In this document: positions 6,315-28,829 of the stretch, piece by piece | How positions within the stretch are numbered: the stretch's first letter is position 1 | Layout of the letters: each line of letters starts with the position of its first letter | Assembly: GCA_000091165.1 (NCBI GenBank) | Contig: FP565575.1 | Span: 750,001 to 782,000, forward strand | From: Candidatus Methylomirabilis oxygeniifera | GTDB lineage: Bacteria > Methylomirabilota > Methylomirabilia > Methylomirabilales > Methylomirabilaceae | Direction of reading: 5' to 3' | Length of the DNA: 32,000 nucleotides | Position numbers and translations under genes: made by a program | Notes under the pieces: model-generated | The model's database searches: none | Told to the model about the DNA's origin: nothing | What the model saw: the letters and a program-made list of their open reading frames with translations, nothing else

Positions 6315-6568
6315 TCTATCAGAACCATCCATCATCGCCCCTAGCGATGTCGTAGAGAATGGAGTTGACCGTCATCGCAAACACGATCCTTGAATCGGGC
6401 ATGCTCCGTTGATACAAAGGCGGCAACATCACGTGGTTATTGGATTTATCGCCAGTTCTCGCATGGAGGAGAAGGGATCCGACGGGTGTTGGGGGTTACA
6501 GAAGCGTTGCGAGGTAGTCGTTGTTCAATGTAGCAACGACTCCTTGCTTTCTGACGGAAAGGAGAACA

Positions 6569-7408
6569 ATGAGCTTATTAAAGTGTTTAGCGATAAAGCC
6601 TGAGACGCTCATGCGGATGGCTCTTGGCACAGCGCTCCTGGCCGCGATCCTCGTACCGGCCGAATCGGCGCTGGCGGTTGCTCGCTTTGGTACTCGCTGT
6701 CAGAAGGAATTCCAGAACGGCTGGCGTGCAACGCTCCCGTACATGTGGGATCGCTGTGGGTGGTTCAACGACGAACTCGACGACACCGACACAAAGGTCT
6801 TTTACTGGAACCTCCACGGCGCCCGTAACTCGTTCTCGACCTGCGACAGTTGCGGCAACGGCGTGGATGATGTGCACCTCCTCTACGTGGGCACGCATGG
6901 CGGCGCGATCAACGACACGAACGCCCGCCTGGTGATGTGGGACCAGAACGTGCGTGCGCTCTCCATCACGGACAACTGGCGCTATGGGGACGAGAACACG
7001 GGCGTTGCGTTTTTCGCGCAATACGCCTGCGAAACACTCACGAATGGCGATGGCAATATCTGGAGTCGCTGGCGAACGGCCTTTCGAGGCGGGCTGATCA
7101 TGGCCCTGGGTAGTCACGATAAGCTTTGGGACAGCGTCACGACCAATGAGACCGGTGAAGATTTCGCTGACGATCTTCAGAAAGGAAAAGTTGTCAAGTG
7201 GGCGTGGTTCGACGGCAACGGGGACTGGTGGGAAGACCAGGATGTGGCGGTTATGGCGACGGGGAGTTCCCAGACGGCAGCCAACGACGCCAGCGCGGAT
7301 TGCAAGTTCCGCCGCGACAACGTGAAGTGGCAGAACTTCGGCAGCTTCGCACGCTGGCGCGACGGTCAGGCTGAATGGTGGTGTCGCTCACGCATTGACA
7401 ACAACTGA
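6569..7408 (+). CDS. secreted Trp/Asp-rich protein with a clan-CD-like His/Cys pattern, uncharacterised
   Basis: ATG at 6569 follows AAAGGAG (6558-6564). Hydrophobic signal-like segment (ALGTALLAAILVPAESALA). HLLYVGTHGG (His110) and VAFFAQYACETL (Cys154) each follow a hydrophobic strand, as in legumain, caspases and gingipain. Confidence 0.75.
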   Translation: MSLLKCLAIKPETLMRMALGTALLAAILVPAESALAVARFGTRCQKEFQNGWRATLPYMWDRCGWFNDELDDTDTKVFYWNLHGARNSFSTCDSCGNGVDDVHLLYVGTHGGAINDTNARLVMWDQNVRALSITDNWRYGDENTGVAFFAQYACETLTNGDGNIWSRWRTAFRGGLIMALGSHDKLWDSVTTNETGEDFADDLQKGKVVKWAWFDGNGDWWEDQDVAVMATGSSQTAANDASADCKFRRDNVKWQNFGSFARWRDGQAEWWCRSRIDNN

Positions 7409-7425
7409 ATCGAGAGGTGGATGCT

Positions 7426-8508
7426 ATGCGTATCTCCCGAACAGCGGCCCTGCTCACTGCAGGGTTTGTTCTTACCGCAGCGGCTCTTAGCGCGAATGAA
7501 CTGCGTAAAGGCCACTCCGACTACCTGGCGTCGCTGACGGAGCGCTCACTCAAAAAGGCCTTCCCTGCTCGCAGCGTGCGGCTGCTGGAGGTGGCTCCAG
7601 GCCCAGGCCGCGCCGCCGCCGCCAAGGCGATCCTCGCACGACTGGAACGAGGCGACCTTGGTCGGCGTCTCAGGCTCGCCGATCTGAAGCCGAGAACAGC
7701 GGACCGTCGTGTCCTCTCGTTTCTTGGTGAGGCGGGGTACTTGGATGTCATGGCCGACGGCTCGAAGCTGCGTGTCCGAGGAGCCATAGATGATACGAAG
7801 GAGATTGAACGCGCCGGCGCCGGTCGTATCGAGAAGAAAGCGCTGGAAGATTTAGGCCGTCGCTTCGTCCGTGAGGCGCTCTCGCCGTTGGTCAAGCTGG
7901 GTAAGGGCGAAACGCTGATGTTTCTTGGGGTGCGCTATCTGTACGACGGCGAGGCCGGTACGGAAGCGGCTACCGCGTCCCAAGAGCGCGAGCGGGTGAT
8001 TGCAAGCATCGCGATCTTTGGTCGCGAGGTGGCAGGCCTGCCAATTGTCGGTAGCGGATCGAAGGTGGCCGTATGGTTCGATAACTCCCGTGAACCCGTC
8101 GGCTTCGATGTAGACTGGCCGGTCTACCGCGTGTCGTCTCGTGTCCAGCGTGTGTTGTCACAGGCCGAGTTGGCGCGCCGCATCGCCACGACGACCGTGC
8201 CTCTCGGAGGCACCAAGGACATTACAGTCCGCCGCTTTGAGTGCGGCTATGTCGACCTTGGTGCTACCCGCCGCACGAAGGTTATGCAGGCCGGCTGCTC
8301 CATAGCGTTCGAGGGCCGCGGCGAAGGCGGCGAGGTTTGGGGACGCACGGAGTTTGTGCCGGCTGGTAGGCCCGCGCTAAAGGAGGCGCGGTGGCCGCTC
8401 GCCAATGCGCTAGCGGCGGGGGACGTGATCAACACCGGCACCGAGGAGTTCCAGCGCTTTCTCAACTCACCGAAGGCGCCAGACGAGGCTCCGCCTACGG
8501 CACAGTAA
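7426..8508 (+). CDS. secreted hypothetical protein
   Basis: ATG at 7426 lies 8 nt after GAGAGG. Signal peptide MRISRTAALLTAGFVLTAAALSA. It begins 18 nt after the upstream gene ends. I recognised no motif. Confidence 0.75.
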   Translation: MRISRTAALLTAGFVLTAAALSANELRKGHSDYLASLTERSLKKAFPARSVRLLEVAPGPGRAAAAKAILARLERGDLGRRLRLADLKPRTADRRVLSFLGEAGYLDVMADGSKLRVRGAIDDTKEIERAGAGRIEKKALEDLGRRFVREALSPLVKLGKGETLMFLGVRYLYDGEAGTEAATASQERERVIASIAIFGREVAGLPIVGSGSKVAVWFDNSREPVGFDVDWPVYRVSSRVQRVLSQAELARRIATTTVPLGGTKDITVRRFECGYVDLGATRRTKVMQAGCSIAFEGRGEGGEVWGRTEFVPAGRPALKEARWPLANALAAGDVINTGTEEFQRFLNSPKAPDEAPPTAQ

Positions 8509-8685
8509 GACACCCTCGGCATTTGAGTAGGTGAGCCGTGAGAAATGGAGATGAGTTGCGATTACTGATAGGCGGATGAGTATCGGACCTATACCGAGTT
8601 CCTGGGAAACAATGGTGGTTTTGTGCAGGTGAATCTGCTGTATAGGATGATGTAGTTAACTGCTGACAGCAAGGAGGCGGATGGC

Positions 8686-10851
8686 ATGAATGAGCGAGAA
8701 GAACGCCCGGCTAAGGAGCGCGTAGAGTTCAAGAAGCTTCTTGCGATCAATCCCAACTACTTTGGTAATCTGGAGAAGAGCGAGTTCAAACCCGTCAAGA
8801 AGATTGTCGGAAACACGACGTACGAGGAGGTGACCTGCGTCGGATTCAACCCGGCGCTCAACCTCCTCGAGGCGACCATTCAGATCAAACGACCCGGTGG
8901 CTACAATGGCACCCTCTGTACACCCGGATCGACCGAGTATGTTCGATTCTTTATCGACTACGGCGCCGGCTGGATCGACGTCGGTCTCGCCTCCTTCAAC
9001 GCACATGACATCGCTAACGCTGTCGACTGCGCGAACCATCCCGATAAGCCCATCTCCTACGTCGTGACACTCTCCCTCGACCCCCAGCGGGATACCTGCA
9101 AACACCCCGTTCTGCCGAAGGTCCGCGCCATCCTCTCATGGCAGTTGATGCCTCCGGCGGCGGCCTCGAATTGGCCGCCAATCTGGGGTAACGTACTCGA
9201 CCAGCACATCCAGATCAAGCCGCGGCGCCCGATATTCGGCGACATCTTCGAGGTTATCCCCAAGGACGTGCTGAAGGACCTTCCACCCCTGATCGAGGAG
9301 GTCAAGCCGTTTCCCATCCCACTGCCCGATCCCCCACCGTTGTCCGTGAGCGATCTCGCAGAACTCTATCACGTCAAAGAGAAGACCATGAGCGCCGGTG
9401 TAGAACCCCACCGGTTCGGGCTGGCGCACCTACAGGCGTTGGTGGCATCGGGGACCCAGGACATGCTGTCCGGCGCCAACGTGGAGTGGAAGGCCGCCGG
9501 TATTGATCTGGCTGGGGCACTGGCCGCCCTCGACAAGACCAAGGCGGACGTCTCATATGAAGAACTCAAATGCCTGGGACTGGAGTATAACCTGGATCGC
9601 CTGGTCGCGACCTTCAGGATCAAGCGACCAAGCGGATACTCAGGCAATCTGTGCGCTCAGGGGAGTCAGGAATACGTAGCCTTCTGGGCGGACTGGGACG
9701 ATACGTGCGAGTGGACGTACCTCAATACCGTTACGGTCAACGTCCACGATATCTCGACGATTCCGGCCGACGGGCTCGCCTACAGCGCGATCCTGCCGGT
9801 GGACCTGAACGCCGTCCGGCGTCCCTGCGGCGGCCCGGGTGGCGGGCCGAAGATCGCGCGCATCCGAGCTGTCTTATCGTGGAACAGCCCGCCGTCGACA
9901 ACCGATCCTGACGCGCTGAATCACTGGGGCAACCGTCTGGACGCGCATGCGCAGATCCGCCCCGGCGCCTCGGTCCCCGGAGATCAGCCGTTTATCAGTG
10001 CCATCGGCGGCATCGGCGTCGCCGACATCAACGTCCTCGGCAACGGCATGACTAAGCCCACAGCGACATTCGGCTTCAGCGGCCTCGCTGCCGATTATCC
10101 ATGGCTGCTGAGCCGTGAATGCCCATTCGGCGGCCTGATCATCGTCCAGGGGCCGCCCGTACTCGGGTTCAAGTACCGGCTCTGGGCGCGGGAGTTCGGC
10201 AACGCGATGACCGAGCAGATTGTGACGGACCAGTTCCATGTGATGAACTGGCTCGGGGTCGGATCCGACATCGCGCCGGATCCAATCACGGGCTACGCCA
10301 CCTACATGGATACGCTCTCAAACATGAACCAGGTGCTGGCGCACTGGACGCCGCCGGGAGACGCTCTGTGGGAAATCCGGGTGGAGATGGCCACGCTGGG
10401 CGACGTCGTCGTTGGGACCACTGTGTGGCACAGCATCCAGCTCGATAATACGGCGCCGCGCCGCAAGCCGGCCGTGCTGCCGTTCGAGCCGCCGGCGGTA
10501 ACCTGCGAGATCCACATCGACAGCGGTGGCGACTGCAAGGACTTCACCCAGGGGACGGTGATCCAGGGGCACTTCGTTGCGCGGGACACGCATTTCGGCG
10601 GGTTCTCTCTGACCACACTGCCGTCAAGCATGTTGCCGAACAGTCCCACAACAGCGACGCCGACCACCTCGCAGACGGCCTCGTTTGCCGCCGGCGGCGA
10701 CGAATGGGAGCTTGCCACCATAGGCATGCAACCCTGTGGCTATGTTGTGCTGTTACAGGTCTGGGATCGCTCGATCGTCGGAAGCCGACCCGACTCGCAC
10801 AACTACAACTACTACGACGTGGGGTTCTGTCTGAGGGCGGCGAGTAAGTAG
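8686..10851 (+). CDS. large hypothetical protein (721 aa) with a tandemly duplicated N-terminal domain, no signal peptide
   Basis: AAGGAGG RBS (8671-8677). Long ORF with an internal duplication and a Pro-rich linker (PFPIPLPDPPP). Confidence 0.85.
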   Translation: MNEREERPAKERVEFKKLLAINPNYFGNLEKSEFKPVKKIVGNTTYEEVTCVGFNPALNLLEATIQIKRPGGYNGTLCTPGSTEYVRFFIDYGAGWIDVGLASFNAHDIANAVDCANHPDKPISYVVTLSLDPQRDTCKHPVLPKVRAILSWQLMPPAAASNWPPIWGNVLDQHIQIKPRRPIFGDIFEVIPKDVLKDLPPLIEEVKPFPIPLPDPPPLSVSDLAELYHVKEKTMSAGVEPHRFGLAHLQALVASGTQDMLSGANVEWKAAGIDLAGALAALDKTKADVSYEELKCLGLEYNLDRLVATFRIKRPSGYSGNLCAQGSQEYVAFWADWDDTCEWTYLNTVTVNVHDISTIPADGLAYSAILPVDLNAVRRPCGGPGGGPKIARIRAVLSWNSPPSTTDPDALNHWGNRLDAHAQIRPGASVPGDQPFISAIGGIGVADINVLGNGMTKPTATFGFSGLAADYPWLLSRECPFGGLIIVQGPPVLGFKYRLWAREFGNAMTEQIVTDQFHVMNWLGVGSDIAPDPITGYATYMDTLSNMNQVLAHWTPPGDALWEIRVEMATLGDVVVGTTVWHSIQLDNTAPRRKPAVLPFEPPAVTCEIHIDSGGDCKDFTQGTVIQGHFVARDTHFGGFSLTTLPSSMLPNSPTTATPTTSQTASFAAGGDEWELATIGMQPCGYVVLLQVWDRSIVGSRPDSHNYNYYDVGFCLRAASK
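8818..9222 (+). repeat. domain copy 1 of the intragenic duplication (aa 45-179)
   Basis: TYEEVTCVGF..ATIQIKRPGGYNGTLCTPGSTEYVRF..AHDI..KVRAILSW..WGNVLDQHIQIKP aligns with copy 2. Confidence 0.8.
9553..9963 (+). repeat. domain copy 2 of the intragenic duplication (aa 290-426)
   Basis: SYEELKCLGL..ATFRIKRPSGYSGNLCAQGSQEYVAF..VHDI..RIRAVLSW..WGNRLDAHAQIRP. Similarity is at the protein level only, so the duplication is old. Confidence 0.8.
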
Positions 10852-11142
10852 CCGGGTTGCCGGTCGAAGAACAATACGGACAAGGAACCCGATCAAGCGA
10901 AACGTGAGGTAGTATGTTGCTTAGCGGATGGAAAAGGAGTATTTGTAAGTAACGTATGACCGTGCCCAATCAACCGGAATAAGCTCGGCCAACCTTAAGT
11001 AGGGGAACACTCACGCTAACGCGTAAGAGGGACTTCAGCAGTCCCCCAGATCAGATTCGCATCGGCGGTAGAGTTTCTGACCATGCGAGAGGGGTCCACC
11101 CAAGTCATCGGACAAAACTAAACGAAAAAAGGAGACGAACAC

Positions 11143-12057
11143 ATGGCGGAGACAAATGAGCGTCGGGGAATGGGGTGGTTGCCGGACTACCCCAGTTTTC
11201 GCGATCACACAGTCGATCTGGATGAGCTGCCCCAACGGCTAAAGGATGTAGGACAGCGCGAGTCAGTGAAGGCGATGCTGAAAAAGGTCGGCGTTGCGGC
11301 GCCACTGAAGGCGCCGCCGGCCTCAGTTGATCTTCGGGCCTGGTGCTCCGCTATCGAGGATCAGGGCGCCTTAGGCTCCTGCACGGCGAATGCCGGGGTA
11401 GGAATAGTGGAGTATTTTGAGTATCGAGCCTTCGGACGTCACCTGGATGCCTCCCGGCTCTTTTTGTATAAAGCGACCAGAAACCTGATGCATCTGACAG
11501 GCGATACGGGCGCCTTCCTCAGGACCACGATGGGGGCCCTGGTGCTGTTCGGTGTCCCGCCCGAGGAGTACTGGTTGTATACCGTCGCCGATTTTGATAA
11601 GGAGCCTACTGCGTTCTGCTATGCCTTCGCCCAGAACTATCAGGCGATTCAGTACTACCGTCTCGATCCACCAGGCACCAGTAAGCCGACCCTGCTCACC
11701 CGGATTAAGACCAACCTGGCCGGCGGGCTGCCGTCGATGTTTGGTTTTACGGTCTACACCTCGATCTCGCAGGCGGCCGGAAACGGCAAGATTCCTTTTC
11801 CGACTGCCGGCGAGAAGGTAGCGGGTGGCCACGCCATCGTGGCCGTGGGGTACGATGACGCGCTGAAGATTAAGAATACGAATCCCGGCGGTGCAGCAAC
11901 GACGGGGGCGCTGCTGATTCGGAACTCGTGGGGAACGGGATGGGGCGACCAGGGGTACGGTTGGCTCCCTTACGACTATGTGTTGAAAGGGCTGGCTGTG
12001 GATTGGTGGTCACTCCTTAAGAACGAGTGGATAGATACCGGGGCGTTCAAGGTATAA
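11143..12057 (+). CDS. papain-family (C1) cysteine peptidase, no signal peptide
   Basis: DQGALGSCTANA (Gln/Cys), GGHAIVAVGYDD (His), IRNSWGTGWGDQGYGWLPY (Asn/Trp). AAAAAGGAGA RBS. Confidence 0.9.
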   Translation: MAETNERRGMGWLPDYPSFRDHTVDLDELPQRLKDVGQRESVKAMLKKVGVAAPLKAPPASVDLRAWCSAIEDQGALGSCTANAGVGIVEYFEYRAFGRHLDASRLFLYKATRNLMHLTGDTGAFLRTTMGALVLFGVPPEEYWLYTVADFDKEPTAFCYAFAQNYQAIQYYRLDPPGTSKPTLLTRIKTNLAGGLPSMFGFTVYTSISQAAGNGKIPFPTAGEKVAGGHAIVAVGYDDALKIKNTNPGGAATTGALLIRNSWGTGWGDQGYGWLPYDYVLKGLAVDWWSLLKNEWIDTGAFKV

Positions 12058-16153: not shown

Positions 16154-16229
16154 TGGTGGAGCTGACGGGATTCGAACCCGTGGCCTCCTGACTGCCAGTC
16201 AGGCGCGCTCCCAACTGCGCCACAGCCCC
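16154..16229 (-). tRNA. tRNA-Ala (anticodon GGC)
   Basis: The reverse complement folds as a canonical cloverleaf with the G3:U70 Ala identity pair. Anticodon loop CTGGCAG, T arm ACGGG/TTCGAAT/CCCGT, encoded CCA. Confidence 0.95.
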
Positions 16230-16504: not shown

Positions 16505-16594
16505 CCGGACCTCTTTAGAGCACTCCTGGCGAGGGGCGACAGCGCAGTCATGGACATGAAAGTCTACGCGGTGAGGTATTCAATGCCCGCCCGC

Positions 16595-16704
16595 GTCATT
16601 GCGAGCGACCAACGGGAGCGTGGCAATCTCATCGTTGTACCCAGGGGCCACGGACCCCAACGACTGTGAGATTGCTTCGGTCGCTGCCGCTTCCTCGCAA
16701 TGAC
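16595..16704. repeat. nested palindromic REP/MITE-like element
   Basis: Outer inverted repeat GTCATTGCGAG (16595-16605) / CTCGCAATGAC (16694-16704). Inner inverted repeat GCAATCTCA (16623-16631) / TGAGATTGC (16667-16675). A further small palindrome sits in the centre. Confidence 0.6.
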
Positions 16705-16784
16705 CCGCGAGGGAGACTTTCTAACCAATGACCAGGCAGCGGTTGGCGAACGACATTGGGACGGTACCTGGGGGTCGAATCCGC

Positions 16785-16814
16785 TTGACAGTTCGTAGAG
16801 CGCTTTGATAGATA
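16785..16814 (+). promoter_or_regulatory. candidate sigma70 promoter for the PqqD/B2/precursor/kinase operon
   Basis: TTGACA (16785-16790) with ATAGAT or TAGATA at a 17 or 18 nt spacing. Weak -10. Confidence 0.35.
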
Positions 16815-16899
16815 GAAGAATCGATAAAGCCCATGAGGCGCCTACTTCCTGAGGGGCCTCAGCCGCTCCCTGAGTGTTGAGGAGCCGAAGAGCTGGAGA

Positions 16900-17217
16900 A
16901 TGGTAAGCGATCCTGCGACAATCTATCCGATCAGGAGCGAGCATGTGACCTGGAAAGCCCTCGACGGCGAGAGCGTCCTCCTCCATCTCGAGACCGGCGT
17001 GTACTTCAGCCTGAATGAAACCGGGACCGCTGCGTGGGAGCTGTTCGATGGCGCAACTCCGTTGGCAGCCGTCGGCGAGGCCATCTGTGCTCGATTTAAT
17101 GTCTCCGCAGAGCAGGTCCGGCAAGATCTCTTCGAGTTGACGCAGACGCTTCAGGAAGAAGGATTGGTGGAAATTCATGAAGACCCTGCGACGCCTCCGG
17201 GAACTGACCGATCCTGA
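16900..17217 (+). CDS. PqqD-family peptide chaperone (RiPP recognition element, lasso B1-like)
   Basis: Typical PqqD pattern: W.ALDGESVLLHLETGVYFSLNETGTAAWELFDG..PLAAV.EAI...F.V..EQVRQDL.EL...L.EEGLV. GGAGA immediately precedes the ATG. Confidence 0.85.
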   Translation: MVSDPATIYPIRSEHVTWKALDGESVLLHLETGVYFSLNETGTAAWELFDGATPLAAVGEAICARFNVSAEQVRQDLFELTQTLQEEGLVEIHEDPATPPGTDRS

Positions 17218-17689
17218 GTCGTTCCGGCTCTTCGGTTGGTCGCTTCTGATGGTTTTCGTGGTGGCAACCCTCTTGCGCTTTACGCGGTTGCCGGTGTTGC
17301 TCCGCTATTTGACCCGACCGGCGGCCCCTATACGCACCGGCCACAAGTCGGTACGGACCCTCGAGACCCGCGCAGTCGATCGGGTCCGCCGGTATAGCCA
17401 TGTGATTATCACGGGTCTCCTTCGATCGCGACGCCCATGTCTGCTGCGTTCGCTGGTCCTGTACCGATACTGTTGGAAGTGCGGAGTGCCCGTATCGATC
17501 CACTTTGGGGTACGGTCGGGTATGGGCGGATTGGAAGGACATAGTTGGGTCACGTGTGACGGGATCCCTTTAGGGGAATCGGATGCAGGGGTGCGTCCCT
17601 ACATCGTCGTCTATTCGTTCCCCATCAACACCGACGGGACCGACCCGCATGACGCTCCGGCTGTGGCCGGATATCTGGAATGTGCGTAA
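17177..17689 (+). CDS. lasso-peptide B2-type transglutaminase-like cysteine protease
   Basis: Hydrophobic N-terminal helix, then RRPCLLRSLVLYRYCWKCGVPVSIHFGV...LEGHSWVTCDG (Cys...His...Asp pattern of McjB-C/Transglut_core3). Overlaps the PqqD gene by 41 nt. Confidence 0.85.
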   Translation: MKTLRRLRELTDPESFRLFGWSLLMVFVVATLLRFTRLPVLLRYLTRPAAPIRTGHKSVRTLETRAVDRVRRYSHVIITGLLRSRRPCLLRSLVLYRYCWKCGVPVSIHFGVRSGMGGLEGHSWVTCDGIPLGESDAGVRPYIVVYSFPINTDGTDPHDAPAVAGYLECA

Positions 17690-17737
17690 GCTATAGCCAC
17701 TGACGCTGAAACGATATTGAGAAGGAGGAGGATACGC

Positions 17738-17860
17738 ATGAAAGAGATCGTTACGGAAGAACCGAAGATGCCCTATACGAAACCGACCCTCACCAAGCAC
17801 AAGCCGCTGCGGGACATTACGGCCGGGGATGTCTCAGTGATCGGTGGGGTAAGGGTGTGA
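17738..17860 (+). CDS. 40-aa candidate RiPP precursor peptide (MKEIVTEEPKMPYTKPTLTKHKPLRDITAGDVSVIGGVRV)
   Basis: Missing from the ORF track because it is too short. ATG lies 7-8 nt after GAAGGAGGAGGA. It sits between the B2 protease and the kinase. Y13/P16/L18/T28 match the lasso leader register Y-17/P-14/L-12/T-2 if cleavage occurs before G30. Confidence 0.6.
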   Translation: MKEIVTEEPKMPYTKPTLTKHKPLRDITAGDVSVIGGVRV

Positions 17861-17906
17861 GGTAGACCGATCCTTAGCGACTTGTGACGGTAGTGCCGAT
17901 CGCAAG

Positions 17907-18926
17907 ATGAACCGCATGATCACACAGACGTTTAGTATCTACGGAATCGACGTTCAGGTAGATGCGGATATTCCGCTACTCGCCGCCGGGATTGATGGAT
18001 TGCTGCGGCGGTTTTCCCGACATCCTGCAACCGACAGTCGGCCGCTGCGGTTTGTCTATGAACGCAGCGGGAAGGTTGCGGACCCTCTTTCGCATAAAGC
18101 ATCCGACGGAGACGGATCACTGCTCTTCTCGACCTCCCGGGAGAATGCCTTTGATCTGGCCGGTCGGCTGGGCATCGACTGGGATGTCTATGCTCGGGAT
18201 GGCGGTTTCTTGCTGGACTATCATCGGCATGGCCGACTATGGCTGGACACCGCGGGCGGACGGCTTGAGGGGTCGCTGGCCGAGCCGCTGGATCTACACT
18301 ATGCGCTGCTTTCCAGCATCTTCTTCTTTTTTCCGTTCGCGCAGCTTCTGGCCCGGCGCGGACTCCACGTTGTGCATGCGGCCGCCATGGAGCGGAACGA
18401 GCGCGGGGTACTGATTCCCGGAATGAGTGGGAGTGGTAAGAGTACCTGCTGTGTCTCCCTGATGCGGGCAGGGTATCGCTGCCTCTCGGATGACAAGCCG
18501 TTTCTACGGCAGAACGGGAGCGGTGTCGAGTTGCTCCCGTTTCCCGAAATGATCGATGTGACTGATCAGTCTGTCGCCTTCTTTCCGGAGCTCAACAGAG
18601 CGGCATCAGACCTCGAGTCCGGCTACCGGAAGAAGCGGTTCTGTGCCGAGACGCTGTATCCGGGTTCCGTGGCTGACGCTGTCACGCCCAGCGTCATCCT
18701 ATTTCCGGAAATCAGTGGAGAGCCGACCAGTAGAGTCGAGGCGCTGTCAAAGGCGAAGGCGCTCCAAGCGCTTCTGCCGCACAGCCTGCTCTGTTTTGAC
18801 CGAGAGATCTCGGCGCGTCATTTTGACCTGCTCGCGCGCCTCGTCGAGACGACCGCCAGTTATCGTCTCTATTTCGGCCGTGACGTCCTGGATCTTCCTA
18901 CCCTAGTCGATCAGCTCCTCCAGTGA
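17907..18926 (+). CDS. HPr kinase/phosphorylase-related kinase (HprK-like)
   Basis: GVLIPGMSGSGKSTCCVSLMRAGYRCLSDDKPFL closely parallels the HprK catalytic core GVLITGDSGVGKSE..LEL...GH.LV.DD. Confidence 0.85.
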   Translation: MNRMITQTFSIYGIDVQVDADIPLLAAGIDGLLRRFSRHPATDSRPLRFVYERSGKVADPLSHKASDGDGSLLFSTSRENAFDLAGRLGIDWDVYARDGGFLLDYHRHGRLWLDTAGGRLEGSLAEPLDLHYALLSSIFFFFPFAQLLARRGLHVVHAAAMERNERGVLIPGMSGSGKSTCCVSLMRAGYRCLSDDKPFLRQNGSGVELLPFPEMIDVTDQSVAFFPELNRAASDLESGYRKKRFCAETLYPGSVADAVTPSVILFPEISGEPTSRVEALSKAKALQALLPHSLLCFDREISARHFDLLARLVETTASYRLYFGRDVLDLPTLVDQLLQ

Positions 18927-18994: not shown

Positions 18995-19003
18995 TAGGCT
19001 GTG

Positions 19004-19852
19004 ATGAGCGTATCTGACGACCTGCCGCTGGTCTCGATCATTACCCCCTCTTTCAATCAGGGACAATTCATTCGTCGAACTATCGAGAGCGTCCTCTCCC
19101 AGGACTACCAGAAGCTGGAATACCTTGTGATGGATGGGGGTTCTACCGACGAAACCCTCGACATCCTGCGCAGCTATGGGAACCGGATCACGTGGAGATC
19201 CGGGCCGGACGGAGGACAGGCGGATGCCGTCAACGCCGGTGTTCGGCTGGCTCAGGGTGACATTCTCGGCTGGCTGAATTCCGACGACACCTATCAACCG
19301 GGCGCGGTGAGGGCCGCCGCGACCTATCTGGCGGCCCATCCGGCAACAGCGGTGATATATGGGGATGCGCACTACATCGATAAGCAGGACAGGGTAATCG
19401 GGATCTATCCTACCGAGGATTTCGACCGGGATCGACTGGCCAAGGCGTGCTTCATATGCCAGCCTGCCGCCTTCTTCCGACGGTCAGCCATCGAGACCGT
19501 GGGCGGGCTCGATACGCGCCTGCAGTACTGCATGGACTACGATCTGTGGATTCGGCTGGGGCGTCGATTTCCGATCGATCGAATCCCGTACGCGCTGGCC
19601 AACAGCCGCCAGTACCCTCAGACCAAGACCTGGGCTCAACGGGATCGACTGTTCGAAGAGCTGTGCGAAGTCACGCAGCGATCGTTCGGGTATACATCGC
19701 GCCATTGGCGGATGTGGCATGCCTACGCTCGCGTGAAAGGTGTCTCATGGCCGCTCGCTCGAACGGTGTTGTATCCGGTCAGGACAAGGCTGCCGCTATG
19801 GATCAATCGATTGATCTTCCGGGATATGCGCGCCGGGAAAAGACGAAGCTGA
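19004..19852 (+). CDS. family 2 glycosyltransferase
   Basis: VSIITPSFNQGQFIRRTIESVLSQDY..LEYLVMDGGSTDET, followed by a DxD-like region (NSDD). Confidence 0.9.
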   Translation: MSVSDDLPLVSIITPSFNQGQFIRRTIESVLSQDYQKLEYLVMDGGSTDETLDILRSYGNRITWRSGPDGGQADAVNAGVRLAQGDILGWLNSDDTYQPGAVRAAATYLAAHPATAVIYGDAHYIDKQDRVIGIYPTEDFDRDRLAKACFICQPAAFFRRSAIETVGGLDTRLQYCMDYDLWIRLGRRFPIDRIPYALANSRQYPQTKTWAQRDRLFEELCEVTQRSFGYTSRHWRMWHAYARVKGVSWPLARTVLYPVRTRLPLWINRLIFRDMRAGKRRS

Positions 19853-19878: not shown

Positions 19879-20673
19879 TCAGACAGTTGACGAAGCGCTG
19901 AACTTCCGGTACTCGGTCACGACGTCGTCGGCCGGGCCGGTGGCAGCGACCTGCCCGTGATGAATCCAAATGGCTTTCTGGCAGGTGTCCTGGATCAGTG
20001 TGAGGTCATGCGATACCAGAACAATGGTGACTCCTTTCGCCTTGAATGCTTCCATCCTTTCCTCACACTTTTTTTGGAAGGCGGCGTCCCCAACAGAGAA
20101 GAGTTCGTCGATCAGGAGTAAGTCCGGCTTGGCATCCGTCGCGATCGCGAATCCGAGCCGGGCAGACATCCCGACTGAATAGTTCATCAATGGCACATCG
20201 ATAAACTCCTCCAGCTCGGCGAACTTGACGATACGATCAAATCGCCGTTCAAGCTCTTTTTGTGAGAACCCCAGAAGCGATCCGTAGAGGAAGATGTTCT
20301 CTCGTCCGGTCAAAAACGAGTCAAACCCGGCGCCGAGCTCGATGAGGGGAGCGATTCGTCCTCGTACAACGACCCGCCCGACAGAGGGGGGAATGATGCC
20401 GGCGATCACCTTCAGAAGCGTACTCTTTCCCGCTCCGTTGGCTCCGATGATCCCGAGAATCTCCCCGGGATCTACAGAGAAGGACACCCCCCGTAGCGGC
20501 CAAAACTCGTCCCGTCCTTTTGTCTGACGCTTCAACAGCCGGATCGCGTGATCCCGTATTGATCTGATTCGCTCCCGGTGCAGCAGCAAACGGATGGAGA
20601 GATCTTCAATCTCAAGAACTGGTGGCCGTCCAAGGTGAGCTGGAGGAGCCGAGAGGCGTGGAACGTCAAGCAT
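19879..20673 (-). CDS. polysaccharide/O-antigen ABC exporter ATP-binding protein (Wzt/TagH-like, NBD only)
   Basis: Walker A GANGAGKST, signature YSVGMSARL, Walker B LLLIDE. The ATG at 20673 is preferred over the track start at 20769, which would overlap the permease gene. Confidence 0.9.
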   Translation of the reverse strand: MLDVPRLSAPPAHLGRPPVLEIEDLSIRLLLHRERIRSIRDHAIRLLKRQTKGRDEFWPLRGVSFSVDPGEILGIIGANGAGKSTLLKVIAGIIPPSVGRVVVRGRIAPLIELGAGFDSFLTGRENIFLYGSLLGFSQKELERRFDRIVKFAELEEFIDVPLMNYSVGMSARLGFAIATDAKPDLLLIDELFSVGDAAFQKKCEERMEAFKAKGVTIVLVSHDLTLIQDTCQKAIWIHHGQVAATGPADDVVTEYRKFSASSTV

Positions 20674-20720
20674 GGTCGGGCGCGTGAACAAGTCGAGAGA
20701 TGTGGCCCGGTTGCCGGCCG

Positions 20721-21575
20721 CTAGACATAGTGGATGAACCGGGACTCGAATCGGTGAAAGACCATCCACCCGATGGCGAGGGTGACCAGGGAGAGGGCGA
20801 GCCCGAAGATCATCATTCCGATGGGGGGCGCCGCGCCCAGGTAGACAGGAGCTCGAAGGGATTCCAGAAGCGCATACATGGGATTCATATACAGGAGAAA
20901 CTTGAACTTCTCCGGGATGATCTCGGGCGGATAGAAGATCGGGGTGGCATAAAACCAGGCCAACAGACCGGCCTCATAGAAATACTTGACGTCCCGGAAG
21001 AAGACATTGAAGGTTCCAACAAGTAAGGCGATGCCCAAGGCGAAACAGGTCAGACTGACGAGTGGGATCGGCAGCCAGAGCAGATGCAGGCTGAAACCCG
21101 CGCCGACTGCGGCCATCAGGAGAAAAAGCGGGACTAATGTGAAGACAAAATTGACGACCTGTGAGACAACAGTCGCAATCGGGAAGATCGCTTTCGGAAC
21201 AAAGACCTTTCGGATGATGGGACCGTTGAGAACGACGCTGTCCAAACCCCGTGAGGTGCCTAACGAGAAGAGGTTCCACCCCAGCAGAGCGGTGAACACA
21301 TACAGCGAGTAATTCGGACGGCTACTGAAAATCCTGGAGAAGACCATCGTAAAGATAACCATAGCCAGGAGAGGATTCAACACAGTCCAGGCGAATCCAA
21401 GCGCCGACCGCTTATAGCGAAGCTTGACCTCACGGATGACAAGCTGACGCAACAGCTCCCGATACCGGAGGAGCGTCAAAAATGGCCCGGTGGATCGGTG
21501 ATCTGCGATGTACAGTCCGGGCTGAGGCGCACGTCTTTCATGACTCATTGCACGTCCGATATTGTCCTCCGGCAT
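20721..21575 (-). CDS. ABC-2 type polysaccharide exporter permease (Wzm/TagG-like)
   Basis: N-terminal LRYKRSALGFAWTVLNPLL ABC-2 signature and six hydrophobic segments. An alternative start at 21548 is possible. Confidence 0.9.
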   Translation of the reverse strand: MPEDNIGRAMSHERRAPQPGLYIADHRSTGPFLTLLRYRELLRQLVIREVKLRYKRSALGFAWTVLNPLLAMVIFTMVFSRIFSSRPNYSLYVFTALLGWNLFSLGTSRGLDSVVLNGPIIRKVFVPKAIFPIATVVSQVVNFVFTLVPLFLLMAAVGAGFSLHLLWLPIPLVSLTCFALGIALLVGTFNVFFRDVKYFYEAGLLAWFYATPIFYPPEIIPEKFKFLLYMNPMYALLESLRAPVYLGAAPPIGMMIFGLALSLVTLAIGWMVFHRFESRFIHYV

Positions 21576-27856: not shown

Positions 27857-27971
27857 CTGGTGGAAGCAGCGGCGATCCGTCTGTGCGAACTTGTCCGCGG
27901 GTGTTTTGATAGTGTGCGCTGATCAATTTTACGAATCCGCCATTCCAGTCACCGAGCCCGCCAGCCGACCA

Positions 27972-28829
27972 ATGCCGATCATCGTTGGCGCGCCGCGTTC
28001 CGGAACGACGCTGTTACGCCTGATGCTCGATGCCCATACGGACCTTGCCATCCCGCCGGAAACAGGTTTTCTGGCGACCGATCAGACGTTCCTGCACCGC
28101 CTCTCTCGGCAGGAGTTCGCCGACTTCATCGAACAGTTTCCACCAGGCGTTCCCGGTTGGCAGGATTTCTGCATCCCGTTCCCCGTGTGGCGCGAAGCGC
28201 TCGAAGCCATCGAACCCTTTTCGCCCGTGAACGCCTTCAGGACTTTTTATCGGCTGTACGCGGCCCGTTTTTCGAAAATGCGCTGGGGGGACAAGACGCC
28301 CAGCTACGTATTTTGCATGAGGCAGATCAAGGAGATGCTTCCGAAATCCCGTTTTATCCACTTGATTCGCGATGGGAGGGACGTTGCGCTGTCGTGGCGA
28401 AAGACCTGGTTCGCTCCCGGGCAGGACATGAAAACGCTGGCAAGCCACTGGAAGCAGTCGGTGTCGGCAGGTCTGGACAGCCGGAAGGACGGGAGCCATT
28501 ATCTTGAGATCCGTTACGAGGAACTGATTCAAGATACGGTGTCGGTGCTGCAACGCATTTGTGATTACATTTCGCTCGATTGGCAGCCGGCAATGCTGAA
28601 CTACTTCGCGAATAGCCCGGCGCGCCTGGCGGAGCATGCGGAGCGGCGGCGTGACGATGGTACGGTGCTTGTCAGCAGAGAACAACGACTTGAACAACAA
28701 CGCCTGACGACACGCCCGCCGATCTCGGAGCGCGTACTGGCCTGGCGCGTCACGCTCACACCGTCTGAGCGCGAGGAGTTTGCGAGTGTTGCGGGCGATC
28801 TGCTGGATACTTTGGGATACGAACCATGA
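27972..28829 (+). CDS. sulfotransferase family protein
   Basis: 5'-PSB loop GAPRSGTTLL and 3'-PB-like IHLIRDGRDVALS. The start is uncertain: ATG at 27972, or the track TTG at 27891. Confidence 0.85.
   Translation: MPIIVGAPRSGTTLLRLMLDAHTDLAIPPETGFLATDQTFLHRLSRQEFADFIEQFPPGVPGWQDFCIPFPVWREALEAIEPFSPVNAFRTFYRLYAARFSKMRWGDKTPSYVFCMRQIKEMLPKSRFIHLIRDGRDVALSWRKTWFAPGQDMKTLASHWKQSVSAGLDSRKDGSHYLEIRYEELIQDTVSVLQRICDYISLDWQPAMLNYFANSPARLAEHAERRRDDGTVLVSREQRLEQQRLTTRPPISERVLAWRVTLTPSEREEFASVAGDLLDTLGYEP

Follow-up and report, generated by a model that had tools for sequence, protein, structure and literature searches.

A conserved 40-codon gene of Candidatus Methylomirabilis oxyfera joins a lasso-type leader to a short, non-lasso core in a cassette without a cyclase

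Introduction

In this study, we analyzed a 32-kb stretch of DNA from Candidatus Methylomirabilis oxyfera, as the organism is named here (contig FP565575.1, positions 750,001 to 782,000), which is referred to below as the window and whose own numbering is used for all positions. The analysis concerns a small open reading frame (ORF) of 40 codons at 17738-17860 and the cassette of genes that surrounds it. Related loci and homologous proteins are cited by the L and P numbers of our collection.

Results

Gene content of the cassette

The following features make up the cassette.

16900..17217, + strand: B1, a discrete PqqD-type recognition element for ribosomally made peptides that undergo post-translational modification (RiPP recognition element, RRE), 105 aa (Pfam PqqD, 1.6e-18)
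17177..17689, + strand: B2, a transglutaminase-like cysteine leader peptidase, 170 aa (lasso_biosyn_B2; Transglut_core3)
17721..17732, + strand: Shine-Dalgarno (SD) sequence GAAGGAGGAGGA, 5 nt before the ATG and present once in the window
17738..17824, + strand: leader, M1-A29, containing Y13, P16, L18, H21, L24 and T28
17825..17860, + strand: predicted core GDVSVIGGVRV (G30-V40) and stop codon; Ser33 is core Ser4
17907..18926, + strand: HprK-like (ScmC-family) kinase, 339 aa (NCBIfam, Pfam, HprK alignment)
19001..19852, + strand: family-2 glycosyltransferase (GT2; Pfam Glycos_transf_2, 4.1e-30), the last co-directional gene

The genes follow the order B1-B2-precursor-kinase-GT2, all co-directional and with gaps of 46-75 nt; the B1 and B2 genes overlap by 41 nt, as they also do in relatives. 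A 204-aa ORF on the minus strand (16564..17178) was taken as spurious because it overlaps the 5' two-thirds of the B1 gene.

The precursor gene and its leader

The precursor ORF extends from an ATG at 17738 to a TGA at 17858-17860 on the + strand and encodes MKEIVTEEPKMPYTKPTLTKHKPLRDITAGDVSVIGGVRV, for which neither Pfam nor NCBIfam gave a match. The first-pass annotation had described it as untracked, which proved incorrect: an identical 40-aa protein is already annotated as CBE67964.1 ('protein of unknown function', Ca. Methylomirabilis oxyfera). Its other statements on this part of the gene, a strong SD sequence, a lasso-type Y/P/L/T register and the replacement of Gly by Lys at position -8, were all borne out. 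Pairing of GAAGGAGGAGGA with the anti-SD sequence was predicted at -12.1 kcal/mol, which ranks first among 16 gene starts and in the upper 0.46% of all 20-mers on the + strand. An alternative start at TTG 17717 was rejected because the SD sequence would then fall inside the ORF and because homologues begin with MKE or MKD. Lasso leaders are published as carrying YxxPxL at -17 to -12 and a penultimate Thr (PMC10368454). If cleavage occurs between A29 and G30, the precursor presents exactly this arrangement, with Y13 at -17, P16 at -14, L18 at -12 and T28 at -2, and K22 occupies -8. When the 32 kb were translated in six frames, the pattern Y..P.L.{9}T.G appeared once, in the precursor ORF itself, and a scan of all six frames revealed no second leader copy in the window. 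Downstream, a hairpin CTTGTGACGGTAGTGCCGATCGCAAG is predicted at 17880..17906, between the precursor stop codon and the kinase start, where the SD sequence is poor (-3.2 kcal/mol); the two together might have a role in setting the ratio of precursor to enzyme.

Among 5.8 billion proteins searched, 63 small homologues of 31-61 aa were found, which puts the family size at 63 or more. The named homologues belong to Methylomirabilis species only, and the remainder are mostly metagenome proteins. The family shares a near-invariant leader, PYTKPTLTKHKPLRDITA. In the alignment of the 63 sequences, Y13, P16, L18, T19, K20, H21, K22, L24, R25, I27 and T28 are invariant, K10, K15, P23, D26 and A29 are conserved in at least 90%, and hypervariability begins after A29. 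For the 17-codon leader, 23 distinct DNA versions were compared with the window sequence as reference; 162 codon differences were synonymous and 21 non-synonymous, and third codon positions held 162 of the 197 base changes. Since synonymous and third-position changes dominate, the leader is under purifying selection at the protein level, and the 40-codon ORF is a real, conserved gene subject to such selection.

In a profile search, 74 of 1.84 billion cluster representatives matched at E <= 0.001, and the leader type KPxLTKHxxLRDITA is therefore in wider use, with other kinds of core. The same leader was observed before cores (P0192-P0224; L016 at ~7042, minus strand) that include a group ending in LGCT[KR]xF and a group containing WYQW, which suggests further uncharacterised RiPP families using one leader; the context of a distant 'LGCTK' precursor (P0193) was uninformative on a contig of 789 bp. 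When genome contigs were searched with a profile of the precursor alignment, four loci were recovered, one of which is labelled Patescibacteria and is probably mis-binned.

Proteins encoded beside the precursor

The best match of B1 among solved structures was the lasso RRE TbiB1 (5v1u, E 2.4e-11), followed by further PDB matches to LppB (9x8z) and PbaB1 (9x90). Its residues N39 and D77 align with the Asn and Asp through which LppB fixes the kink at the leader Pro and the leader Tyr (PMC13381572). Against the NCBIfam lasso PqqD chaperone models, it gave E-values of 8e-13 and 5e-12, which lie under the curated cut-offs. With 56.3 bits, B2 exceeded the curated cut-off of NCBIfam lasso_biosyn_B2 (33), and it matched Pfam Transglut_core3 at 5.7e-15; no usable solved-structure match was obtained for it by sequence. 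Nine cassette B2 proteins all have C88 and H122, as well as an acidic residue at H+12 (E134). The pair of a discrete RRE and a transglutaminase-like B2 that marks lasso clusters is consequently present in the window, with B1 remaining under the NCBIfam lasso-PqqD cut-offs.

The kinase matched two NCBIfam models under their curated cut-offs, HprK_rel_A (TIGR04352; 3.3e-20, 72.3 bits against a cut-off of 200) and ScmC (TIGR04249; 3.5e-10, 39.7 bits against 125), and the Pfam families PF27840 (ScmC) and PF07475 are recorded on P0065, a protein identical to it. Its P-loop and DD motif align to those of HprK (1jb1). In all eight cassette kinases compared, H157, K178, D195 and D196 are unchanged; they are the counterparts of the His-Lys-Asp-Asp motif that lasso-tailoring kinases are reported to require (PMC9266682). 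The GT2 is a probable member of the cassette: it occupies the same post-kinase position in L005-L007 and L011, and NTP_transf_5 replaces it in other cassettes.

Absence of a lasso cyclase

Lasso cyclases resemble asparagine synthetase and have some 550-650 aa. No such protein was found among the window ORFs of at least 180 aa (the search did not extend to the remainder of the M. oxyfera genome), and only two window ORFs reach 500 aa, a family-4 glycosyltransferase (GT4) and a 721-aa protein without a Pfam match. Likewise, no member of the Asn-synthase family appeared in the gene tables or long ORFs of the related loci examined; the leftover long ORFs of the metagenomic loci encode a type II secretion ATPase, PQQ dehydrogenase, citrate synthase, an integrase and similar proteins.

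The core peptide

Homologous proteins were pooled with the precursors from 58 fetched loci, which gave 121 distinct cores of 4-19 residues (median 8). Gly is the first residue in 83 of these, and E, V, A, I, T, Q and N also occur there. Ser stands at position 4 or 5 in 110/121, and all cores except one (120/121) have Ser or Thr within positions 3-6. A single core, SAASVRTDIRVES, is formally lasso-compatible, with an acidic residue at 7-9 and five residues following. The window core, which is 11 residues long and has G, G and V at positions 7-9, does not have this form, in agreement with the first-pass annotation, which had found no Asp or Glu there. Its type, [GE]D[VL]SV[IVF]GG[VI]R[VM], is present in seven relatives with two extra C-terminal residues, and by this recurrence the particular core of the window is conserved as well. 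The M. oxyfera core is two residues shorter (...GGVRV* at 17855..17860 versus ...GGVRVLR* in L005, 8231..8359) because a 1-nt deletion changes TTG to TGA.

The broader view of the first-pass annotation, a lasso-like leader joined to a core that is not lasso-like, is upheld by the lasso-type B1 and B2 neighbours, the 4-19-residue cores of the family and the failure to find a cyclase. It had proposed an alignment of small ORFs as a check, and in ours the 63 homologues keep the reading frame, the Y/P/L/T register and the mostly-Gly core start. The conserved core Ser, the kinase as its likely modifier and the precedent of the linear polyphosphorylated peptides (LPP) were absent from it.

Related cassettes and their variants

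In the related loci, precursors of the family always accompany B1 and B2 and nearly always a kinase, and arrays of two or more precursors per locus are frequent. Every Methylomirabilis locus that was long enough showed them beside all three genes. Three types of cassette were distinguished (A, precursor; K, kinase).

Type (a), the window type: B1-B2-A(1-2)-K-GT2, in the window, L005-L007 and L011
Type (b), with radical SAM: B1-B2-radical SAM/SPASM-A(1-5 or more)-K-NTP_transf_5-SDR, then two ABC exporters
Type (c), with methyltransferase: B1-B2-radical SAM-A-methyltransferase-A, then K, in L029-L031

Type (b) was found in M. lanthanidiphila, M. limnetica, L009, L023 and L032. L008 has a cassette of type (c) with no kinase nearby, and its cores still have the Ser, as an 'SP' pair. 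Kinases with 35-41% identity, from Nitrospira-annotated or unnamed sources, belong to cassettes in which B1 and B2 are accompanied by one to three small ORFs, K and NTP_transf_5. Among the precursors of such loci, those of L017 have the full canonical YxxPx[LV]x3Gx5Tx leader, including Gly-8, and cores of 5-6 residues (KIYFKPVLSRDGHLKDITA|GTISST, and two others with the cores QKTGA and NGTPV); precursors in L015 and L019 lack Gly-8, for example YVKPALVKHELLRDVTA|IQLSRVVDQRIS. A distant locus, L018 (8510..14594), encodes PqqD, an HprK-like kinase, GT2, GT2 and NTP_transf_5, then a lipoprotein and a sulfotransferase; no B2 and no precursor were identified in this region. Its kinase-GT2-GT2 order is independent support for GT2 enzymes acting with kinases of this sort. 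A sulfotransferase gene is common to the surroundings of the L018 cassette and to the polysaccharide locus of the window.

Several further observations were made on the small ORFs. In M. limnetica (L002/L003, 6169..7915), two more of them have a second leader subtype with the canonical Gly-8, YERPILRRVGWLRDVTA|QASIDTIE and YQRPTLRRVGWLRDVTA|NGSTDT, and are followed by a Mur_ligase_M protein directly upstream of PqqD-B2-radical SAM. On a 131-kb metagenome contig (L027, 10001..10099), an orphan precursor of the family has the core QQGSGPMD, with no B1, B2 or kinase within ±10 kb. By a loose pattern, arrays of the leader motif reached nine matches in L032 and seven in L054; by a stricter pattern, each of the two loci holds five family precursors, all with different cores.

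Genomic surroundings

The cassette is placed between a tRNA gene and a polysaccharide locus.

16154..16229, - strand: tRNA-Ala(GGC), ~670 bp upstream of the B1 gene
19879..20769 and 20721..21575, - strand: Wzt/Wzm-type ABC-2 transporter pair (NCBIfam and Pfam matches), convergent with the cassette

Past the Wzt/Wzm pair, the polysaccharide locus encodes a GDP-mannose dehydratase, an epimerase/reductase, a GT2, a sulfotransferase (27891..28829) and the GT4. The pair is retained beside the cassette in L005-L007; judged from sequence, it may be an exporter, or no more than a component of the polysaccharide locus next to it. The related cassette of M. lanthanidiphila and M. limnetica lies elsewhere, beside type II secretion/pilus genes. 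An Rfam scan of the window found two tRNAs only. Between 15600 and 20000, no promoter-like site was detected and terminator-like sites were at chance level, and the base-composition profile showed no island-like or GC anomaly over the cassette. Farther away, the genes of the region 6521..12057 include those for a papain-like C1 peptidase (11143..12057), a DUF6345 protein and two proteins without Pfam match, of 363 aa and 721 aa; in L005, which is syntenic, a gene for a chagasin-type inhibitor (Inhibitor_I42) lies 241 bp downstream of the peptidase gene, past a 70-aa ORF.

Discussion

Proposed pathway and alternatives

The ORF probably encodes a RiPP precursor whose pathway would be that of a lasso peptide minus ring closure and would give a short linear peptide, probably phosphorylated on Ser. 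A linear product is the most likely outcome because the cassette has no ring-forming enzyme. In the pathway that we propose, B1 would bind the leader through YxxPxL, and the HprK-like kinase would phosphorylate Ser33 (core Ser4), possibly several times, while the leader is held. The GT2 may then add a sugar to the phospho-serine or to the peptide, a place that NTP_transf_5 takes in sister cassettes, and B2 would cut past Thr28-Ala29. The expected product is the linear 11-residue peptide G-D-V-S(mod)-V-I-G-G-V-R-V. Analogy with BsfK and LppK is the basis for phosphorylation at Ser4, for the sequence of reactions, for the precise site of cleavage and for the role of GT2. BsfK, of Bradymonas sediminis, phosphorylates Ser3 of a lasso core on the uncleaved precursor, and BsfB1 both speeds this reaction and is required for cleavage by BsfB2 (PMC10368454); LppK polyphosphorylates Ser3 of a linear peptide made without a cyclase (PMC13381572).

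Several points weigh against this pathway. The kinase scores under every curated NCBIfam cut-off for HprK-related proteins, and for this reason its substrate can only be inferred. The GT2 may be part of the neighbouring polysaccharide locus. The conserved Ser may be kept for a reason other than phosphorylation, since L008 keeps it without a kinase, whereas its sister loci L029-L031 have one; and the defining chemistry of the family could be something else, given that most Methylomirabilis cassettes have a radical SAM/SPASM enzyme and the window does not. In addition, the search for a cyclase was confined to the window and the related loci. The low kinase scores and the Ser of L008 would also agree with a RiPP precursor that passes through B1 and B2 and has its Ser modified in another way, by O-glycosylation through GT2, nucleotidylation or some other transfer, in which case the HprK-like protein would have another substrate or would be a phosphorylase or ATPase. 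The constant succession of the kinase by GT2 or NTP_transf_5 points in the same direction, and the function of the NTP transferase is unsettled even in studied systems (PMC13381572, PMC9266682). Nevertheless, the His-Lys-Asp-Asp residues and the P-loop of the kinase are intact, and both studied relatives with a Ser near the core N-terminus (Bsf, LPP) are phosphorylated at that Ser, so that we regard a different modification as rather unlikely.

It also appears quite improbable that the leader itself is the functional product, or that the peptide serves B1, B2 or the kinase as a ligand, regulatory or decoy, with the true substrate elsewhere (for example, a component of the polysaccharide pathway) and the variable tail unimportant. 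Such a role would account for 19 consecutive near-invariant leader residues, far beyond the needs of RRE binding, for cores of down to four residues and for the adjoining polysaccharide locus; but a hypervariable core after an invariant leader, with at least two paralogues per locus, is the usual RiPP pattern, a position-specific Ser and a mostly-Gly first residue are retained inside the variable part, and the core type of the window is conserved in seven relatives. A true lasso precursor with its cyclase encoded elsewhere in the genome is highly improbable and was rejected because the cores are incompatible with it. The canonical leader register and the lasso-type B1 and B2 speak for this possibility, as does the limited reach of the cyclase search, but the window core has only 11 residues and no Asp or Glu at 7-9, 1 of 121 family cores could formally form a ring and a tail, core residue 1 may be E, V, I, Q or N, and no cyclase lies within ±8-10 kb in loci of several lineages. 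As for a chance ORF with a fortuitous motif, its short length and the missing Pfam and NCBIfam matches would be expected, yet the 63 homologues, the 74 representatives among 1.84 billion proteins, the dominance of synonymous changes and an SD sequence that is the strongest of the 16 tested leave it a negligible probability, and it was rejected on the grounds of conservation.

Implications

The B1/B2 pair is usually read as the signature of a lasso cluster, by people as well as by genome-mining tools. In the present family, the same leader, chaperone and protease occur without a cyclase, on cores too short for a lasso. The idea of a linear analogue of phosphorylated lasso peptides is already published; here it would be extended from Bacillota to M. 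oxyfera, a nitrite-dependent methane oxidiser, and to related cassettes with a Nitrospira annotation, with a different leader peptidase and with far shorter, hypervariable cores.

It is possible, although we advance this tentatively, that these cassettes constitute a RiPP family of their own in Methylomirabilota and in related cassettes with a Nitrospira annotation, whose ultrashort (4-19 residue) linear peptides are processed by B2 and modified on Ser. Such a family may comprise hypervariable multi-precursor arrays whose partners are a kinase, a nucleotidyltransferase or GT2, and radical SAM, methyltransferase or Mur-ligase-like enzymes. If this is true, the lasso leader/B1/B2 module would be a portable device for delivery and release that is not tied to lasso formation, and the products, perhaps phospho-glycosyl peptides, might be passed to the neighbouring machinery for polysaccharide export. 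With an 11-mer product and four or five genes, the window cassette offers a small and cheap test case for the questions of what the kinase and transferase make and what role the peptide has beside polysaccharide loci.

Comparison with known systems

The LPP of Bacillota, a 'linear analogue of phosphorylated lasso peptides' without a cyclase (Popov et al., Nat Commun 2026; PMC13381572), are the closest described system. A discrete PqqD-type RRE and an HprK-like kinase, joined by one more transferase, occur in both systems without a macrolactam cyclase. In both, a conserved leader precedes a variable C-terminus, and both loci adjoin polysaccharide genes. Compared by eye with the published logo, YxxPxVLxHQxIxFETxxS, the leader YTKPTLTKHKPLRDITAGDVS agrees in Y, P, V/L, H, I/L and T and in the spacing of these residues, Y and T standing 15 residues apart in both; the Q, F and E of the logo and its Ser offset are unmatched in the window leader. 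The modified Ser of LPP is at core position 3, and the conserved Ser here is at 4 or 5.

Other features set the two apart. The guide gene of the LPP family encodes the SipW-like signal peptidase I LppS, which cuts right after the Thr; the window has instead a lasso-type B2, expected to cut one residue later, and no match to the signal-peptidase family was seen among the scanned window ORFs or in the gene tables of related loci. The studied LPP core has 45 residues, in a group of precursors of 35-200 aa, against cores of 4-19 residues here. The LPP cluster has the NTP transferase LppN and the MsbA-like exporter LppD, whereas the window has a GT2 and a nearby Wzm/Wzt pair and neither Lpp counterpart; an NTP transferase, together with an exporter of the MsbA-like kind, is present in the sister cassettes L001-L003, L009 and L023. 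Finally, LPPs are stated to be restricted to Bacillota (PMC13381572), and the present family occurs in Methylomirabilota, with related cassettes annotated as Nitrospira.

The phosphorylated lasso peptide system Bsf of Bradymonas sediminis (PMC10368454) shares with the window the leader YxxPxL at -17 to -12, B1, B2 and an HprK-like kinase (K), and its nucleotidyltransferase (N) is matched in sister cassettes. Its kinase acts near the core N-terminus, on Ser3, with the aid of B1 and on the uncleaved precursor; here, the conserved residue is Ser4. Bsf differs in having a cyclase (C) and a lasso core with Gly1 and Asp8, where the window has neither a cyclase nor an acidic residue at 7-9, and in an Ile at leader position -2 in place of the canonical Thr seen here. 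Paeninodin and pseudomycoidin (PMC9266682) also involve an HprK-like kinase with the His-Lys-Asp-Asp motif that acts on the linear precursor, and in pseudomycoidin a kinase and a second transferase give a phospho-glycosylated Ser (PMC9266682). In these systems, however, it is the C-terminal Ser that is modified, a cyclase is present and the product is threaded; the lasso leaders of Bacillota are, moreover, mostly WxxP, unlike the YxxP found here.

The SynChlorMet (ScmC, ScmD, radical SAM) and HPr-rel-A cassettes, defined in silico by NCBIfam/TIGRFAMs, also pair a PqqD-family chaperone with an HprK-related protein, and some of them include a radical SAM/SPASM enzyme. The window scores far under the cut-offs of their models (ScmD 21.4 against 100; PqqD_rel_X 14 against 35), and a literature search found no published description of these cassettes. 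The same search gave nothing relevant on Methylomirabilis and lasso peptides or on the leader sequence, and no paper on B2-dependent cyclase-less cassettes, the last absence being no proof since most subscription journals lay outside the search. On this comparison, the window system stands outside the lasso class because it has no cyclase and its core is not of lasso form, and outside the LPP family because the SipW-like peptidase, the NTP transferase and the exporter are not in the window; it resembles LPP- and Bsf-type pathways but belongs to neither.

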